DNA of 64,000 nucleotides from Escherichia phage vB_EcoM_TH18. Shown here in pieces: positions 2,172-46,111 of the stretch (its first letter is position 1; every line of letters starts with the position of its first letter). The stretch is from the sequence record ON075799; one strand, given 5' to 3'. The translations under genes were made by a program, and so were the position numbers. Below the pieces are notes generated by a model. That model searched no databases and was not told the origin of the DNA. It was given only the letters and a program-made list of their open reading frames with translations.

Positions 2172-3926
2172 TTATGGTTGTGGTCTGCGGACAATAACAG
2201 TGTCAACAACCCCATCTTCAACACCATTAAATGTCAATTGAAGGATGGTAACTGAATTTGCTGCTGTATTAACAGTTTCACTGTTAAGGACAACATAATT
2301 AGGATCCAGAGTTATACTGTGTCCACCTGTGGCATCCTGCGTCAGATAAATCATAGCGGAGAAAGGTTGTTGTGGGTCAGGCCATGCTCCGATTGTCAGA
2401 TTCTTATTCACTGTGACATTATAAATGTTGGATGTGCCACTTGGTGTCCATGTTGCCGTTGGGTCGCCAACTTCTTCCGATTGTAAAGTTAGGAAACCCA
2501 CATTGGTGGAAGAAAGTTGTGTCTGACCGTTAACAAATAACTGATTTGTCGTTACACTATTTTGGGAAGAGAGAGATGCTACGTTAACATTCTGACCTGT
2601 TAAATCAATCGTAATACCGGATACAGTTCCCTTGACAATCAAATTGTTTACTGTCGTTGTGCCAGAAGATCTATTTAAGACTACATCACCATCAGAGACA
2701 ATTTTACCAAGGTTAGAAGTTCCGTTAACCGTCAGATCACCGTCTACAGATCCGTCGCCAGTCGCAGTGAATCCCTCCCCCAAAGTTAATAGCCCTGTGA
2801 CATTACCAGTTGTAGAGGAGAAATCTTTGAGGCTGGCTTGCCCATTAACAACAAGGTTGTTAGTAACTTCTAAGCTCTCACATGTTGTACTGTTGAGATT
2901 GGTATTACCATTGACTTGTAAATCACCACCTACAGTAACCCCTTGTGCCGTTGTTACAGAATTAGGCGAGATATCTTCCCCATTGACAGAAAAAGAAAGT
3001 CCTGTTACAGTACCTGTAATCTTTAAGTTTTCAAGCTCTGTCATCCCAGAAACTTTAAGACGAGCTTCAGAGGGGTCTTTTTTAGAGTTGCCTGTAATAT
3101 AAACATAGTCGAAGGTATTATTACCAAGACCTGTGAAAGACATTGTTGTATTGTCTGCTACTGGCACACCGTTTATAATGATGTCTGTATGTAGCTGATG
3201 TGTCTGCGCTGAGTATGCTTCAAGCCTTGTTTTTATAAACGTCGGGTTAGAATCATCACTGTAGGCAAAAGATAAACTTGAATTATCTTTTGTTAAGATA
3301 AGATTCTGGAATTTTCCTGTTTGATTGTCAGCGTTAACAGGCCCATTAAATGTTGATACACCGCCAACAGAAAGCGTATTAAGACTCGCTAAACCTGTTA
3401 CAGTAAGATCCGCGAATGTACCATTTCCACCCGCAATCCCAGCTAAAGCAGTAGCAATAGCTCTAGTAACGAATTGTGTTGTTGCTAGTGTTGTGCTGTT
3501 ACTATCTGCTGATGGTGTTGGTGCTTGAGGGTTCCCTGTAAAGATAGGACTGTCAATAGGCGCAAATAGTTGCGACATAGATTCTGAATCGTTGTATAAT
3601 CTCCAGTTAACATTGTTGATCGGGTTAGAAGGCAACACCACCGGAGAGCTTTCAGTTGCACCGGGGGCATACCACCATTGGACACCTCTTTCCCCTGTAT
3701 AAGCATACAACTGATTAAATACTGTTGCCTGTTGCCCAGCAACCCACGGCAGTGGAGGTGTTTTAAAGAATAAATTGTCAAAAAATGCTTTTCTGACTGT
3801 AGGTATCAGACTACCATCCTCTGTAACTACAGTTTCAGTTGCTGTTCCATTGACAATTTTATGAAGGCGTTCAGAATCTTCTACAACCTGATCTACCGCC
3901 TGTTCAAATTTAGTCATGTCCGCCAC
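2172..3926 (-). CDS. Tail fiber protein (584 aa) with SPIFTGNPQAPTP motif
   Basis: Motif DSPIFTGNPQAPTP is a recurrent tail-fiber motif (recognised from memory); Asn/Thr/Gly/Val-rich repetitive C-terminal part. Confidence 0.6.
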   Translation of the reverse strand: MADMTKFEQAVDQVVEDSERLHKIVNGTATETVVTEDGSLIPTVRKAFFDNLFFKTPPLPWVAGQQATVFNQLYAYTGERGVQWWYAPGATESSPVVLPSNPINNVNWRLYNDSESMSQLFAPIDSPIFTGNPQAPTPSADSNSTTLATTQFVTRAIATALAGIAGGNGTFADLTVTGLASLNTLSVGGVSTFNGPVNADNQTGKFQNLILTKDNSSLSFAYSDDSNPTFIKTRLEAYSAQTHQLHTDIIINGVPVADNTTMSFTGLGNNTFDYVYITGNSKKDPSEARLKVSGMTELENLKITGTVTGLSFSVNGEDISPNSVTTAQGVTVGGDLQVNGNTNLNSTTCESLEVTNNLVVNGQASLKDFSSTTGNVTGLLTLGEGFTATGDGSVDGDLTVNGTSNLGKIVSDGDVVLNRSSGTTTVNNLIVKGTVSGITIDLTGQNVNVASLSSQNSVTTNQLFVNGQTQLSSTNVGFLTLQSEEVGDPTATWTPSGTSNIYNVTVNKNLTIGAWPDPQQPFSAMIYLTQDATGGHSITLDPNYVVLNSETVNTAANSVTILQLTFNGVEDGVVDTVIVRRPQP

Positions 3927-36275: not shown

Positions 36276-37609
36276 GATATATCACCATCACACTCAATAA
36301 TATTTTCAATCTTCAACGTTGTTTTTCTGTTTTCAGAAATACACAGACTATTAAAATTGCTAATATCGTACTGGATCTTAGATGTATCGCTTACAGAAAC
36401 CTCTAACAGAACTGCTCCAGGCTGATATATTGTAAACCCATAACTATCTCCCTCCCCGTTCTCACACAGAATTTTGTACTCTCCTCTTGCCTCCGCTTCA
36501 TCAACATAAAGTCTGAGAGTTGGAAAATTATTTGCTATATCTTCTTTGTGAAGCCCAACATGATGTTTATCTTTTGTTGGCATCATGAGATAGAAAACTT
36601 CCGCAGGACAAACTCCATATAGTTTTGTAAAATATTTCCTACCTGTTGCTTTTCTTAATCTTTGGAAAATACTGAACATATTAACTTTAGATACATCATT
36701 AAACGGCAACGGTTGCACAGGGGTAACATTTTTGTCTACCTGCTGGCAACAAGATTCTAATCTGTCTAGGAACTCAACCAAAGAATCAAGTGAAAACTGT
36801 TTTGTCTCATCAAAGATATCTGACAGTTTCATTCCGTACATCCCGCTAAGATGTGACTTTGCCGATTCCCAACTTTCTATCTGAAGGCTGGCAATAGCCA
36901 TAGCCAGTTTCATTGTCTCTTTTTTCGAAATTGTATAGCCACGAGATTTGTATTTTTCAGATCTCAAAAGTGATATAATCGGGTATTCAGTCTTATGATT
37001 TACAACTAAGACTCTTTGAGCAATATGTTTTAAGAAATTGCTATCAAATTCCCACACACCATCCTTGAAGTTAAAAGCGCCCATGTTGATTGTAAAATCA
37101 ACTTTGCTAAAGATATCTTCTGTTGTTTTGAACACATCCACAGCAACACACTGTAATACAGGATCCTGCCCAAAGTACAGCGTTACGCTCTTATCTGTCA
37201 CACCAACTCTGGTAAGATTTGGGAGATCATCTTCTTCAAGATGAAAATTTTCACATCTGGACAAAGGGTCTGTGAAACATAAATGCGTATCCTGCCCATT
37301 ATCAAGGTTATAAAAATACCTAAAAGTTCTTTTTTGATTTTCCCATCCGTTTGTCTGTGCGGTTAAATCATACTTTCCACTTAAAAGATTTTTATCCATC
37401 ATGTACGCAATGAATATCTCAAGATTTTCCCAAGATGGGAAATACAAATCAAGATCGTTGACTTTACTATTAGAGAACAAAGAGGTTATTGCCCCGCCAG
37501 CTATCTTAACATCCAGCTTCGACAATAAATCATAAACACCTTTTGGTATAAAAGAGCACAAAATGTCGTACTCTCTTTGAAAATCTTCTTTTTTGAAAAC
37601 ATGCAACAT
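36272..37609 (-). CDS. Pol-beta-superfamily nucleotidyltransferase-motif protein (about 445 aa from MLHVFKK…)
   Basis: Motif GGAITSLFSNSKVNDLDLY has the same G-G-x12-D-x-D spacing as the CCA-adding enzyme head-domain signature GGAVRD…DRD. Confidence 0.5.
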   Translation of the reverse strand: MLHVFKKEDFQREYDILCSFIPKGVYDLLSKLDVKIAGGAITSLFSNSKVNDLDLYFPSWENLEIFIAYMMDKNLLSGKYDLTAQTNGWENQKRTFRYFYNLDNGQDTHLCFTDPLSRCENFHLEEDDLPNLTRVGVTDKSVTLYFGQDPVLQCVAVDVFKTTEDIFSKVDFTINMGAFNFKDGVWEFDSNFLKHIAQRVLVVNHKTEYPIISLLRSEKYKSRGYTISKKETMKLAMAIASLQIESWESAKSHLSGMYGMKLSDIFDETKQFSLDSLVEFLDRLESCCQQVDKNVTPVQPLPFNDVSKVNMFSIFQRLRKATGRKYFTKLYGVCPAEVFYLMMPTKDKHHVGLHKEDIANNFPTLRLYVDEAEARGEYKILCENGEGDSYGFTIYQPGAVLLEVSVSDTSKIQYDISNFNSLCISENRKTTLKIENIIECDGDIS

Positions 37610-37814
37610 CTTAGCTATCCTTAAGTACAAAACAAGATGCGTAGAGACTAGCACATAAAGAAAAACCCCGCAAGAGGCGGGGTTAGGCATAGGAGAGGAG
37701 ATTGATTGGATTATTATTATAGTTATTTGAGAAAAGTGGCGAAGGAACCTTTACATGTCGAGAGTGTCTTACCGTTTACTCAGCCACGACCCTCCTTAGT
37801 GTCCACTTTAATTC

Positions 37815-37893
37815 TGGTTGCGAGTATTGGAATCGAACCTGCAATCTTCAGGGTATGAACCTAACATGGTAAATCCATTTCCACCAATCTGCA
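37815..37893 (-). tRNA. tRNA-like element, degenerate (possible anticodon CAU); likely pseudo-tRNA
   Basis: T-loop-like GGUUCGAUUCC and D-arm found, but acceptor and T stems pair poorly in hand fold. Confidence 0.25.
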
Positions 37894-37899
37894 ATAATT

Positions 37900-37975
37900 T
37901 GGTGTGACGGACAGGATTCGAACCTGTGACCACCTAGTCTTCAGCAAGGCACTCTACCAACTGAGTTACCGTCAC
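37900..37975 (-). tRNA. tRNA-Phe (anticodon GAA)
   Basis: Hand-folded cloverleaf: acceptor GUGACGG/CCGUCAC, T-arm ACAGG-UUCGAAU-CCUGU, anticodon loop CUGAAGA, CCA encoded. Confidence 0.75.
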
Positions 37976-37980
37976 ATAAT

Positions 37981-38057
37981 TGGTGGGCGATGAGGGACTC
38001 GAACCCCCAAAATTCAGGTTCTAAGCCTGACATGTATACCAATTCCATCAATCGCCC
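37981..38057 (-). tRNA. tRNA with anticodon UAG (Leu by anticodon) but class I architecture
   Basis: Acceptor GGGCGAU/AUCGCCC, anticodon arm UCAGG-CUUAGAA-CCUGA, 5-nt variable loop, A73, CCA encoded. Confidence 0.6.
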
Positions 38058-38305
38058 ATCTATATTAACAGTTATGGTTTTCCACGATACACAGAAATAG
38101 TTTTCCCATTAGCATTGATAACATAAGCGGTCTGATCCTCAGACAAAAACACTTTTTGATCAATGCCGGAAATAGCTATAGACTTTTGATGAGCACAATA
38201 CCCAACAATTTTCCCACAAAAAATTTGTTCATCATTTGGAGAGACGACTTTAACTGTTAACATGGTATCCTCTGTACATTTCTGCTTTGATATGTTTATG
38301 TTTGT

Positions 38306-38383
38306 TGGTCTGTCCGGTTGGATTTGAACCAACGACCTGGTCATCCCAAGTGACCCGCGCTACCCAAGCTGCGCTACGGACAG
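38306..38383 (-). tRNA. tRNA-Pro (anticodon UGG)
   Basis: Acceptor CUGUCCG/CGGACAG, anticodon loop CUUGGGA, T-arm GUUGG-UUCAAAU-CCAAC. Confidence 0.75.
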
Positions 38384-38467: not shown

Positions 38468-38559
38468 TGGCGGTTCCTGAAGGATTCGAACCTTCGGTGG
38501 GGAGATTCATTCCCAACGGCTTAACAGGCCGTCACCATCGACCACTCGGTCAAAGAACC
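38468..38559 (-). tRNA. Class II (long variable arm) tRNA with anticodon GUU (Asn by anticodon)
   Basis: 92 nt; acceptor GGUUCUU/AGGAACC, D-arm with CCGAGUGG, anticodon arm ACGGC-CUGUUAA-GCCGU, 20-nt variable arm, T-arm GAAGG-UUCGAAU-CCUUC, G73, CCA. Confidence 0.6.
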
Positions 38560-38568
38560 TGAATATTT

Positions 38569-38645
38569 TGGTGGATCTGGTTGGGGTCGAACCAACAATC
38601 TCTCGATTAAAAGTCGAGTGACTTAAACCATTTGGCTACAAATCC
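38569..38645 (-). tRNA. tRNA-Lys (anticodon UUU)
   Basis: Acceptor GGAUUUG/CAGAUCC, anticodon arm CUCGA-CUUUUAA-UCGAG. Confidence 0.75.
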
Positions 38646-39331: not shown

Positions 39332-39409
39332 GCACGAGAGTGAGGAATAGAACCTCTTAGTCACTGGTTTTGGAGGCCAGCCTTCACCCAGTGAAGTTAC
39401 GCTACTCTC
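39332..39409 (-). tRNA. tRNA-like remnant (probable pseudo-tRNA)
   Basis: Acceptor-like GAGAGU/ACUCUC and T-arm-like GAGG-UUCUAUU-CCUC, but no canonical anticodon arm. Confidence 0.2.
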
Positions 39410-40327: not shown

Positions 40328-40402
40328 TGGAGCATCCAGAGGGTATCGAACCCTCGACTTCAGCTTGGAAGGCTGTAGTTTTCCCAATTAAACTATGGAT
40401 GC
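40328..40402 (-). tRNA. tRNA-Gly (anticodon UCC)
   Basis: Acceptor GCAUCCA/UGGAUGC, anticodon loop CUUCCAA, T-arm GAGGG-UUCGAUA-CCCUC. Confidence 0.7.
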
Positions 40403-40407
40403 ATATT

Positions 40408-40483
40408 TGGTGGGAGTGGTAGGCTCTGCCCCTACGTCCTCTCGATTATCGGTCGAGCGATCTACTAACTGATCTACACTCCC
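40408..40483 (-). tRNA. tRNA-shaped gene, anticodon GAU (Ile by anticodon), with non-canonical D-, anticodon- and T-loops
   Basis: All four stems perfectly paired, but T-loop is GGCAGAG (no UUC), D-loop AGUUAGUA lacks GG, anticodon loop CCGAUAA has C33. Confidence 0.55.
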
Positions 40484-40551
40484 AAACTGTACTGGCCCAA
40501 CAACCACGATTGGAGGGTATCGTCACACATCAAAGCCAGTACAGTTTTAGT

Positions 40552-40641
40552 TGGTGTGCCGTGATAGAGTCGAACTACCCGAGTCCCTTTCGAGACAGGA
40601 GATTTACAGTCTCCCCCGCTACCCCTACGGTCTAACGACAC
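40552..40641 (-). tRNA. tRNA-Tyr (anticodon GUA), class II
   Basis: Acceptor GUGUCGU/ACGGCAC, anticodon arm GGAGA-CUGUAAA-UCUCC, long variable arm, A73. Confidence 0.7.
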
Positions 40642-41505: not shown

Positions 41506-41602
41506 GGCTGGGTGATGGAATCGAACCACCTATGTATTCAACGGCTTCCCCGTCTATTTTCAGGATTATAAATCCTCGCCCTTGCCAAAGGGCTTACCCA
41601 GC
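41506..41602 (-). tRNA. Atypical 97-nt tRNA-like gene (possible anticodon UAU) with about 30-nt extra segment
   Basis: Canonical acceptor GCUGGGU/ACCCAGC, D-arm GCCC-UUUGGCAA-GGGC, T-arm GGUGG-UUCGAUU-CCAUC; anticodon region is a 4-bp stem with loop UUUAUAA followed by 30 extra nt; CCA not encoded. Confidence 0.35.
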
Positions 41603-43409: not shown

Positions 43410-43486
43410 TGGTGGCCCCTGCTGGACTTGAACCAGCGACCAAGCGATTATGAGTCACCTGCTCTATCCAACTGAGCTAAGGGGCC
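43410..43486 (-). tRNA. tRNA-Met (anticodon CAU; elongator-type or lysidine-modified Ile2 not distinguishable)
   Basis: Acceptor GGCCCCU/AGGGGCC with G1-C72, anticodon loop CUCAUAA, T-arm GCUGG-UUCAAGU-CCAGC. Confidence 0.75.
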
Positions 43487-44395: not shown

Positions 44396-46111
44396 TTAAA
44401 GCTGTGATAAGGCTCTTTGGCGAATTTCTTCAAGATCCTCATCCACAAGCAGCTTACCATTAACAAAAACTGTTCTAAGCTCGTTATCATGGTCAGATAC
44501 TTGGTTAATACCAAGATTATCTACCAGCTTCAACTCGCCATCATCACCACGAATAACTTTAACAAAACCTTTCGCAGATTTCTTCCCAAGATCAGTCTTA
44601 GGCTCTTTTACGACCATTACTTGTCTGCCATCAATCACAGCACCAGTAGCTTTTACAGCCATCCCAAGAGAATCACGGGTTGTATATTGCGTTGTATAAG
44701 ACCCTACACCAAACACAATGTTACTGGAAGCAAACCCTCGTTCTTCAAGGCGCTCAAAGATCTCTTTAGCACGGGAGATTGTGATAGAGTCTCCGTAGAT
44801 TAAACCAACATGGCTATCAAGAACTTTGTAACCCAAAGAGTTTACACTACCACCAAAGATTTCCCACAAGCATTGTACAGCACCCTTAACTTCCTCTTTT
44901 GTCAGATAATTTGTAAATTCATCACCTGTCAAAGATTTCCAATCTACGAGGTTGCCTTCCGAATCTCGCATCCATGAAGTGTCTCTGGACATCTCGTATA
45001 AAGTGACATATTTGCCATTTTTAAACAGCACAGCATCCATGTCACAGCACTGCCCCGTTGCCCATTCTTCCTGAGAGCACACGCGATAACCAGCAATGAT
45101 GTGCTCTGGGATCCCACTGTCAGGTCGGAAGACCAGCTTGCCATCACGAGACATAATCTCATCTTTCAGGATTTTTGCTGCCTGTGTAATGATTGCCCAA
45201 AAATCATAGCTGTCAGCGACGTATGAAGCATAACCTGATGGGAAAATCTCTGTCACATAACGCTTTAAGAACTCAACTTCAGCACGAAAACGTGCTTCAT
45301 CAAGCGGCATATCAGGATTTTCCTGCTGGATACGCTCAACAATAAAACCAATGTTCGTTGTCGCTACGCTATGCTCAGATGCGGGAATAGACCCAGCAAC
45401 AAAGCGACCTTTCATGTTGTAATAGCGATTTGCGTAAACAATCGCTGGAATTGTATCTGTGCCCATTGAGCTAATCAGTTGCCCAAATTCGCTCTGTGCT
45501 GCGTCATGTGTTCCAGCTTCACCACGGTATGCAAAACAATGGTTCTGGAAAGGAACATGATCGTTGTTATCACATGTTTTCTTTGCCCACAGTTCTGATA
45601 GTTTACGGTATTGCCAGAAAGTCGTTGCCGTGGTAATTGTCTTCCAAGTCTCCGATGAGATCACGCTCTCAAGGAAGTTCGGCAGCCAGTAAAAATCAGG
45701 ATGCGTGTTCTGAATCGTGAACATGGGAACCTGAACAGGAACAAGAGTTCCTTCAGGCAAAGCCCTAATTTCAATTGGGAGATAACCAAGGTCATGCAAT
45801 TTCTCAAAACCCCAAGTTTCAACAGCATCCTTCCCAATGCTCAAATCACAAATCTCTTTGTAATCCTGAATCGCCTTTTCTTTCGGTAAAGCGAAGAAAT
45901 TATTATTAAACATGTCGATCAGGAACCACTTGATAAATCCCTGAAGACCTGCAAACATCACACGATGGTCATCATCTGCAAAGTGTACAAAGTGTTTCAC
46001 ATTGCGTGGGGTCATGTTGTCTTGAACAAACTGTGAACGTCTATCGTACATCGAGATGTGACTTGGTTTATAAAAATCTGCGAACAGCAATGGACTTTCT
46101 TTGTGAAGCAT
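44396..46111 (-). CDS. Nicotinamide phosphoribosyltransferase-like protein (NAMPT family; possible Namat-type) (571 aa)
   Basis: Family assignment by overall recognition and size, not by a single diagnostic motif; immediately downstream of and co-oriented with PRPS-like gene. Confidence 0.6.
   Translation of the reverse strand: MLHKESPLLFADFYKPSHISMYDRRSQFVQDNMTPRNVKHFVHFADDDHRVMFAGLQGFIKWFLIDMFNNNFFALPKEKAIQDYKEICDLSIGKDAVETWGFEKLHDLGYLPIEIRALPEGTLVPVQVPMFTIQNTHPDFYWLPNFLESVISSETWKTITTATTFWQYRKLSELWAKKTCDNNDHVPFQNHCFAYRGEAGTHDAAQSEFGQLISSMGTDTIPAIVYANRYYNMKGRFVAGSIPASEHSVATTNIGFIVERIQQENPDMPLDEARFRAEVEFLKRYVTEIFPSGYASYVADSYDFWAIITQAAKILKDEIMSRDGKLVFRPDSGIPEHIIAGYRVCSQEEWATGQCCDMDAVLFKNGKYVTLYEMSRDTSWMRDSEGNLVDWKSLTGDEFTNYLTKEEVKGAVQCLWEIFGGSVNSLGYKVLDSHVGLIYGDSITISRAKEIFERLEERGFASSNIVFGVGSYTTQYTTRDSLGMAVKATGAVIDGRQVMVVKEPKTDLGKKSAKGFVKVIRGDDGELKLVDNLGINQVSDHDNELRTVFVNGKLLVDEDLEEIRQRALSQL

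Follow-up and report, generated by a model that had tools for sequence, protein, structure and literature searches.

A phage tRNA-Ile(GAU) gene with C33 and a covarying replacement of D-loop/T-loop elbow bases

Here we describe an isoleucine tRNA gene in a stretch of 64,000 nucleotides (nt) from Escherichia phage vB_EcoM_TH18 (sequence record ON075799), hereafter called the window. Positions 40408-40483 of its minus strand hold a 76-nt tRNA-Ile(GAU) gene with an encoded CCA. Since the gene is 76 nt long, the sequence index equals standard tRNA numbering. Read from 40483 to 40408, the minus strand is composed of GGGAGUG UA GAUC AGUUAGUA GAUC G CUCGA CCGAUAA UCGAG AGGAC GUAGG GGCAGAG CCUAC CACUCCC A CCA, with the following parts.

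40408-40483, minus strand: tRNA-Ile(GAU), 76 nt including the 3' CCA; evidence from sequence, Rfam, the minimum free energy (MFE) cloverleaf and orthology.
40477-40483, minus strand: 5' strand of the acceptor stem (positions 1-7, GGGAGUG), partner 40412-40418; 7:66 is G-C here and A-U in relatives.
40412-40418, minus strand: 3' strand of the acceptor stem (positions 66-72, CACUCCC); evidence from sequence, the Rfam alignment and a compensatory change.
40408-40411, minus strand: discriminator A73 (40411) and encoded CCA (40408-40410); ACCA is invariant among homologues.
40459-40474, minus strand: D-arm (positions 10-25), stem GAUC/GAUC, loop AGUUAGUA; 11:24 is A-U here and C-G or U-A in relatives, U12-A23 is invariant.
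40465-40466, minus strand: A18 (40466) in place of the near-universal G18, and G19 (40465), which is kept.
40441-40457, minus strand: anticodon arm (positions 27-43), CUCGA CCGAUAA UCGAG; the same arm occurs in 25 IMG/VR contigs.
40451, minus strand: C33 in place of the near-universal U33; invariant in 11 phage homologues.
40448-40450, minus strand: anticodon GAU (positions 34-36), predicted to read AUC and AUU; evidence from sequence and the Rfam alignment.
40436-40440, minus strand: variable loop AGGAC (positions 44-48), with A47 versus U47 in relatives; evidence from sequence and alignment.
40419-40435, minus strand: T-arm (positions 49-65), stem GUAGG/CCUAC, G53-C61 kept; 50:64 is U-A here and C-G in PVP-SE1.
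40424-40430, minus strand: T-loop GGCAGAG (positions 54-60), without U54 and U55, with G54.G58 for T54.A58 and C56 kept; evidence from sequence.

As a preliminary description made from the letters alone had listed, all four stems pair perfectly: 21/21 pairs are Watson-Crick, in stems of 7, 4, 5 and 5 bp. In the Infernal check that this description had proposed, the Rfam model RF00005 gave 53.4 bits where its gathering score is 29, and the E-value over the whole 64-kb window was 1.2e-8. The alignment ran from 40411 to 40483, covered model positions 1-71 of 71 and had zero non-canonical pairs flagged. The MFE structure was likewise the cloverleaf (-26.6 kcal/mol, z = -2.6). Infernal and the MFE fold agreed on the same register, which ruled out the canonical fold in another register that the description had allowed for. 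Weaker Rfam matches on the same stretch (permuted tmRNA, 20 bits; metK RNA, 11 bits) were far under their thresholds. ARAGORN, also proposed as a check, never called the gene at 40408-40483, either by default or with -ps90, -ps80 and -ps70. ARAGORN seeds on a GTTC-type T-loop consensus, which is the likely reason for the miss. ARAGORN was therefore unfit for a census of such tRNAs, and we used our own cloverleaf scanner, which ignores the T-loop sequence.

The gene departs from the consensus at five near-universal loop positions: A18 for G18, C33 for U33, and G54, G55 and G58 for U54, U55 and A58. The preliminary description had rightly stressed such departures and had correctly read C at position 33 of CCGAUAA, but its account of the elbow needs amending. 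The T-loop (G54 G55 C56 A57 G58 A59 G60) does lack T54 and Psi55, and A58 is replaced too, but C56, which had been given as missing, is present. In the D-loop (A14 G15 U16 U17 A18 G19 U20 A21), G18 is indeed replaced by A18, whereas G19 is in place. On this sequence the tertiary pair G19:C56 can still form. From the near-universal tertiary set, U8, A14, G19, G53, C56 and C61 are all present while the full signature is absent; A21 and G15/C48 are also canonical. By comparison, 16/16 other tRNAs called by ARAGORN in the cluster (37.8-43.5 kb, all on the minus strand) have canonical GTTCRA T-loops. Their anticodon loops carry U33 as far as they were read by eye, without a systematic tally of position 33. 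E. coli IleRS reportedly depends on G34, A35, U36, t6A37, A38, A73, C4-G69, U12-A23 and C29-G41. The phage gene has G34 A35 U36 A37 A38, A73, U12-A23 and C29-G41.

Escherichia phage Av-05 and three related records (Vequintavirinae, Avunavirus) match the region at 99-100% identity, and tRNA-Ile is 100% conserved in five Av-05-like records. Homologues annotated as tRNA-Ile(GAT), with 75.6-88.6% identity, occur in Seunavirus (PVP-SE1, 4MG), Mydovirus (KpS8/Seu621, Mydo, Ro1), Henunavirus (Hena1) and Certrevirus (KaOmega), and a further homologue occurs in the Straboviridae phage FBB1. The preliminary description had allowed that the element might prove absent or degraded in related phages; it is conserved in them. 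Two flanking tRNA genes anchor the synteny.

40552-40641, minus strand: tRNA-Tyr(GUA), the upstream neighbour and synteny anchor; called by ARAGORN, Tyr-Ile-Gly order in relatives.
40328-40402, minus strand: tRNA-Gly(UCC), the downstream neighbour, beginning 5 nt past the CCA of tRNA-Ile; called by ARAGORN and Rfam, synteny in relatives.

The same Tyr-Ile-Gly order is annotated in PVP-SE1, Seu621, Mydo, Hena1 and Ro1. The window gene is the positional orthologue of tRNA-Ile(GAT) genes annotated in Seunavirus, Mydovirus and Henunavirus, several with fully canonical elbows. The gene itself is already known: GenBank carries tRNA-Ile annotations for its PVP-SE1 and KpS8 orthologues. Elsewhere in the Av-05 genome there were zero further tRNA genes and zero other GAU anticodon arms; therefore, the window gene is the phage's sole tRNA-Ile(GAU). 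A host or prophage origin was rejected, since a search of 5,426 complete E. coli genomes gave nothing similar.

We aligned 11 Vequintavirinae-type phage tRNA-Ile homologues together with an E. coli tRNA-Ile row. In the 11 homologues, 231/231 stem cells form standard pairs and 10/21 pairs have changed on both sides. None of 500 shuffles reached the observed values, and six slid registers likewise came nowhere near them. The window gene differs from that of PVP-SE1 at nine positions. Six of these make up three compensatory double changes (7:66, G-C/A-U; 11:24, A-U/C-G; 50:64, U-A/C-G), and the remaining three are loop positions 47, 54 and 58. This pattern indicates that the tRNA-Ile structure is under purifying selection.

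Loop conservation across relatives, which the preliminary description had asked about, divided in two: C33 is invariant, whereas the elbow variant occurs in some relatives and a canonical elbow in others. By this comparison C33 and the variant elbow are separate oddities, C33 being the older and common to the 11 aligned homologues. The loop CCGAUAA is the same in all 11, those with canonical elbows included; E. coli tRNA-Ile has U33. The identical C33 anticodon arm occurred on widely differing tRNA bodies in 25 IMG/VR contigs, and the U33 arm in 7 contigs. Among the matches listed, a scan allowing either base at position 33 gave C33 in 22/119 viral tRNA-Ile(GAU). When ARAGORN was run on the contigs of these matches, C33 was present in 21/111 tRNA-Ile(GAU) versus 36/1,174 other tRNAs, that is, 19% versus 3% in other isotypes, a six-fold difference (Fisher p = 1e-9). 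In bacterial assemblies, C33 tRNA-Ile genes were mostly located in dense arrays with 10-32 tRNAs per 8 kb. At least five assemblies had a C33 tRNA-Ile beside tRNA-Ala in a 16S-23S rRNA spacer context, and C33 is therefore compatible with decoding. C33 thus appears to be a recurrent phage/array trait that is compatible with housekeeping decoding. As a separate observation, a Candidatus Stahlbacteria rRNA operon (L225) has a C33 tRNA-Ile and also a group I intron inside its 23S rRNA gene (3040-3321, Rfam 50.4 bits).

Within Vequintavirinae, a non-canonical T-loop with A18 was confined to the window/Av-05 group (GGCAGAG), to PVP-SE1, Salmonella phages 41/19 and KpS8/Seu621/BIS47 (AGCAAAG), and to KE22 (AGCGAAG). 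Mydo, Ro1, Hena1, 4MG, KaOmega and FBB1 have D-loop GG and T-loop UUCRA. The variant allele is near-identical in Seunavirus PVP-SE1 and Mydovirus KpS8/Seu621, while the congeners 4MG, Mydo and Ro1 are canonical. This distribution suggests that the allele is exchanged between phage lineages.

The two sides of the elbow change together. We parsed 211 distinct tRNA-Ile(GAU) sequences from all fetched loci. Those with N54-G55-C56 had a D-loop A-G in 15/16 cases and C33 in 16/16, whereas those with UUC had a D-loop GG in 166/168 (D-loop/T-loop association, Fisher p = 5e-19). As a positive control, the known 19:56 tertiary pair also covaried in these sequences (GA with UUU), validating the approach. 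Five loci (L037, L039, L042, L100, L114) have a tRNA-Ile(GAU) with G18-A19 and U54-U55-U56, a Watson-Crick covariation of 19:56 from G:C to A:U. An Infernal examination of 12 tRNA-array loci detected the AG/NGC combination in many isotypes, in Verrucomicrobia and Myxococcota arrays.

Our scanner yielded 1,631 distinct class-I cloverleafs. The T-loop/D-loop counts were 62 for NGC/AG, 6 for NGC/GG, 1 for NGC/neither, 4 for UUC/AG and 1,417 for UUC/GG (Fisher p = 1e-97); these are counts of sequences, not of independent evolutionary events, in a sample partly chosen for C33 tRNA-Ile. In other words, G55-C56 T-loops came with A18-G19 in 62/69 and UUC loops with G18-G19 in 1417/1428. The variant elbow was spread over at least 23 anticodon classes, and the idea that it is specific to Ile, as the window and five other loci (L170, L211, L230, L243, L199) could have suggested, was rejected. 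Given the spread over isotypes and taxa, a single inherited event is impossible. Positions 54.58 of the variant loops were U.A in 45, G.G in 14, A.A in 4, A.U in 3 and C.A in 3, and the mixed G/A combination never occurred. A Watson-Crick pair 20:55 as the basis of the variant was rejected, position 20 being C or U in only about two thirds of the variant tRNAs by eye, without a tally. An obligatory linkage between C33 and the variant elbow was also rejected outside Ile (6/53 vs. 73/1,267).

The loop GGCAGAG of the window gene also occurs in an unrelated viral tRNA-Val (L033) and tRNA-Phe (L138). The former locus is from an uncultured phage (IMGVR_UViG_3300000271_000011) whose C33 tRNA-Ile has a canonical T-loop, while its tRNA-Val(CAC) and tRNA-Val(GAC) have the T-loops GGCAGAG and GGCAGGA with D-loops A-G; the same elbow module would thus sit on another isotype than Ile. 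In three Verrucomicrobia arrays (L188, L226, L260), 7-8 of the 8-9 detected tRNAs had an N-G-C T-loop with an A-G D-loop, which suggests whole tRNA sets on the alternative elbow. In the literature that we covered, which leaves out most subscription journals, the covarying A18/G55 elbow, G54.G58 T-loops and C33 enrichment in phage tRNA-Ile are undescribed. The reviews of T-loops and of non-canonical tRNAs mention neither G55 nor A18.

The elbow of canonical tRNA has G18 inserted between 57 and 58 with a hydrogen bond to Psi55, a reverse-Hoogsteen pair T54.A58, and G19:C56 as its exposed outer face. In FMN and cobalamin riboswitches the T-loop consensus is YGNRA: loop position 2 is G and the intercalating base is almost exclusively adenosine, tRNA being named as the exception with its U at loop position 2 (bioRxiv 10.1101/2022.12.26.521914). 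Given this evidence, the variant elbow (N-G-C-R-R with A18) would be the generic T-loop solution used in a tRNA. We consider that the D- and T-loop changes are probably a covarying swap from G18:U55 to A18:G55 and not a loss of tertiary contacts. A18 would intercalate into the T-loop in G18's place and contact position 55, where G stands for Psi; the intraloop pair 54.58 would be G.G for T.A, with G19:C56 and G53-C61 retained. From the covariation, we infer that the tRNA is still L-shaped with an intact G19:C56 platform.

Several known systems bear comparison. The window gene shares with the generic riboswitch T-loop the G at loop position 2 (55), the purine at position 4 (57) and an adenosine from the other loop (A18) available for the 4/5 gap, and the UGCRA loops of tRNA-array tRNAs fit YGNRA exactly. 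It differs in having G.G and not Y.A at loop positions 1/5, and in being a tRNA elbow and not a riboswitch or rRNA context. Eukaryotic initiator tRNA has an A54.A58 pair. A purine-purine 54.58 in place of T54.A58 is thus common to initiator tRNA-Met and the window gene, and the PVP-SE1 allele has the very A54.A58. C33 is found in initiator tRNA-Met of some species. The initiator keeps G18 and Psi55, however, whereas the window gene is a bacterial-type elongator with G55 and A18. Compared with canonical tRNA-Ile(GAU) (E. coli ileT/U/V, Mydo, 4MG), it has the same 7/4/5/5-bp cloverleaf, 5-nt variable loop, GAU, A37, A38, A73, encoded CCA, U8, A14, G15-C48, G19:C56 and G53-C61, and Mydo, Ro1 and Hena1 keep their tRNA-Ile in the same Tyr-Ile-Gly slot. 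The differences are A18, G54, G55 and G58 for G18, T54, Psi55 and A58. Against E. coli tRNA-Ile, there is also C33 (in the window gene and the phage homologues) for U33, and A4-U69 for C4-G69. Non-canonical D- and T-loops are also a feature of tRNA-Pyl, many mitochondrial tRNAs and the non-proteinogenic tRNA-Gly of S. aureus, all of them without G18-G19 and T-Psi-C. In those tRNAs, G19:C56 is lost, or loops are shrunken and stems altered. Unlike them, the window gene keeps standard loop sizes, G19:C56 and G53-C61, with a one-for-one covarying replacement.

We next considered what the replacements could be for. The host IleRS presumably charges the tRNA, which would then serve on the ribosome. 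Our preferred, if tentative, reading is that it is a phage elongator tRNA-Ile(GAU) with an alternative elbow, selected for escape from host tRNA-targeting factors; such escape would allow AUC/AUU decoding to continue during infection. The conserved loop uridines U33, U54 and U55 are gone, as is U47 in the window. With U54 and U55 missing, neither m5U54 nor Psi55 can be made, so the tRNA is not a TrmA or TruB substrate; the absence of G18 likewise precludes Gm18. The gene, its fold, its orthology, the structural constraint, the covariation of 18:55 and 54:58 and the C33 enrichment are established here; charging of this tRNA, its use in translation, its tertiary geometry in detail and its escape from nucleases are inferred.

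The preliminary description had raised a link to tRNA-directed defence, which deserves consideration. Nuclease attack on host tRNA-Ile(GAU) is documented: CdiA-CT(EC536) cleaves the E. coli tRNA between C32 and U33, and HepS cleaves tRNA-Ile(GAU) as well. CdiA-CT(EC3006) was assayed via cleavage of a tRNA-Ile of unstated isoacceptor. The CRISPR-associated prokaryotic Schlafen CbCash cuts T-loops at U54-U55 in a UUC motif, and single mutations of U54 or U55 block cleavage; its authors state that phage tRNAs have not yet been tried. At these sites the phage copy has C33 where the host copy has U33, and G54-G55 where the host has U54-U55. That phage tRNAs escape anticodon nucleases through loop mutations is a hypothesis of van den Berg et al. 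(2023, eLife, PMC10264068), whose paper mentions neither Ile, position 33 nor the T-loop. T5 tRNAs have been studied against retron PtuAB and PARIS AriB (PMC11555353, PMC11464382). In nuclease-resistant phage tRNAs, as in the window gene, a phage copy of a host tRNA is altered at loop positions where nucleases act. Those changes are in the anticodon loop of other isotypes (Lys, Tyr and others) and their resistance is demonstrated, whereas the window gene, known from its sequence, is changed at position 33 and in the T-/D-loop elbow. The tRNA-Ile of the phage in the Sf14 study has a canonical CUGAUAA loop. Nuclease evasion by the window tRNA-Ile is a plausible proposal.

Several observations weigh against selection for escape. 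C33 is tolerated in housekeeping tRNA-Ile, and its enrichment could be an isotype-specific permissiveness and not defence. The 16/16 co-occurrence of C33 and the variant elbow in Ile is largely a sampling effect and not independent evidence. The variant elbow is rare (13/851, about 1.5%, of tRNAs in trait-unselected viral loci) and present in 1 of the phage's approximately 17 tRNAs, although selection by a broad T-loop nuclease ought to act on every one. In the HepS model the anticodon bases appear to be recognised and not position 33, and the CdiA toxins are interbacterial weapons, not demonstrated phage defences. No cognate nuclease was pinpointed for this variant. Finally, 4:69 is A4-U69, where E. 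coli IleRS reportedly relies on C4-G69. The main rival to nuclease evasion is neutral compensated drift of a weakly constrained accessory tRNA. The gene would then be a functional elongator tRNA-Ile whose odd loops have no adaptive meaning, G18:U55/A18:G55 and U54.A58/R54.R58 being equivalent states and C33 merely tolerated in the Ile(GAU) loop. The C33 genes of rRNA operons fit such drift, as do the occurrence of the variant elbow in at least 23 anticodon classes of tRNA arrays with no obvious isotype logic, the single affected tRNA of this phage, and the weak association of C33 with the variant elbow outside Ile. Drift is harder to reconcile with the six-fold enrichment of C33 in viral Ile(GAU) over co-resident isotypes, its invariance in the 11 homologues, the identical GGCAGAG on unrelated tRNA bodies, which indicates a tightly specified motif, and a variant allele common to genera that have canonical congeners. 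We regard drift as possible but rather unlikely. A broader version of the evasion idea appears unlikely to us as it stands: the gene would belong to an undescribed, recurrent class of A18/G55-elbow tRNAs (54.58 U.A, G.G or A.A), found mainly in phages and mobile arrays, invisible to T54/Psi55-dependent enzymes and resistant to T-loop nucleases such as prokaryotic Schlafens.

The preliminary description had favoured a specialised RNA, for example a decoy, over a standard elongator tRNA-Ile. As a non-translational tRNA-shaped RNA, the product could be a decoy or sponge for a nuclease, toxin or sensor, or could donate its amino acid to a non-ribosomal transferase, as the non-proteinogenic tRNA-Gly species of S. 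aureus do. Losing T54, Psi55, G18 and U33 does make it resemble tRNAs diverted from the ribosome (tRNA-Pyl and mitochondrial tRNAs being cases in the literature), and many ORFs nearby are of unknown function. However, the anticodon, A37/A38, A73, CCA and the D-stem identity pairs are conserved. The gene is also the sole Ile(GAU) gene and a positional orthologue of canonical tRNA-Ile genes, its compensatory stems are maintained, C33 is compatible with decoding, and the covarying elbow changes preserve elbow architecture. No transferase or tRNA-binding partner was recognisable nearby. The decoy proposal is consequently not supported; we judge a non-ribosomal role improbable, and less likely than either evasion or neutral drift. 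The last alternative, a decaying pseudogene that still folds by chance, could draw on the failure of ARAGORN to call the gene, the five changed near-universal positions and the weak tRNA-like remnants in the cluster (39333-39407 and 37815-37893). Given the perfectly paired stems, the three private compensatory double changes and the retained IleRS positions, it is very unlikely. It is also at odds with the complete conservation in five Av-05-like records, the same loop states conserved in Seunavirus and Mydovirus members, and the like covariation of the loop changes in unrelated tRNAs.

The tRNA cluster is interspersed with small open reading frames (ORFs) encoding unknown-function PHROGs, a DUF7338 protein and a homologue of a PHROG annotated as 'tail fiber', and nicotinamide phosphoribosyltransferase (NAMPT) lies nearby at 44396-46111 on the minus strand. 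Pfam and PHROGs searches of the neighbouring ORFs recognised no Fem-type transferase, nuclease, toxin or tRNA-binding partner. With nothing relevant in either, the neighbouring proteins were rejected as tRNA-directed partners of tRNA-Ile. The Av-05 GenBank record (KM190144.1) has zero tRNAs annotated although the cluster has about 17, and Av-05 encodes a tRNA nucleotidyltransferase, Av05_0068 (record 37094-38338), outside the window. The 68-nt spacer between tRNA-Tyr and tRNA-Ile (40484-40551, minus strand) folds as a long hairpin whose stem pairs perfectly over 15 bp (-26.3 kcal/mol); in related phages the two genes are only about 7 nt apart. The hairpin arm was rejected as a dispersed repeat, as its sequence is unrepeated elsewhere in the window.

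Other tRNA-like elements of the cluster, all on the minus strand, also have unusual features. The tRNA-Asn(GUU) at 38468-38559 (92 nt, Rfam 56.8 bits) has a long, stem-forming variable arm, a class-II shape that among bacterial tRNAs is normally limited to Leu, Ser and Tyr. In a 97-nt tRNA-like RNA at 41506-41602 (Rfam tRNA 33.1 bits, seen only in E-value mode), the D-stem is 6 bp long and its loop 4 nt, the extra arm is long and the T-arm is canonical. Its anticodon could be UAU if the anticodon stem is 4 bp, and ARAGORN called it at -ps90 only, with a 4-base anticodon. Just upstream of tRNA-Gln, where PVP-SE1 has tRNA-Trp, the weak element at 39333-39407 may be a degraded tRNA-Trp; ARAGORN called it Trp(CCA) only at -ps80, the Rfam tRNA-Sec match (32 bits) was sub-threshold, and its fold was no better than shuffles. 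The first 'tRNA-Met(CAT)' of ARAGORN (37815-37893; Rfam 25.1 bits, under the gathering score, no cloverleaf fold) is doubtful as a gene. The second (43410-43486, 65 bits) seems closely similar to the ileX-type tRNA-Ile2 of E. coli, which carries lysidine and reads AUA. If so, the phage pairs a canonical Ile2 with a non-canonical Ile1. The tRNA-Lys(UUU) at 38569-38645 has an anticodon stem identical to that of tRNA-Ile (CUCGA/UCGAG) and the canonical loop CUUUUAA.

G18, U33, T54 and Psi55 are taught as near-universal, and here they are replaced in a gene that is clearly under structural constraint. The replacements follow a rule, covariation of 18:55 and of 54:58, across dozens of unrelated phage and array tRNAs. 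They point to a second natural way of building the tRNA elbow, relevant to folding, to chaperoning by TrmA and TruB, and to recognition by RNase P and the ribosome. There is also an annotation blind spot. Given that ARAGORN is blind to the tRNA-Ile variant even when relaxed and that the Av-05 record is without tRNAs, phage tRNA repertoires are likely undercounted. For the question of whether phage tRNAs evade immune nucleases, T-loop-cutting Schlafens included, the variant tRNAs would be concrete and cheap substrates. What makes the variant interesting is that it recurs, obeys a rule and can be tested directly against tRNA-cleaving defence systems discovered of late.

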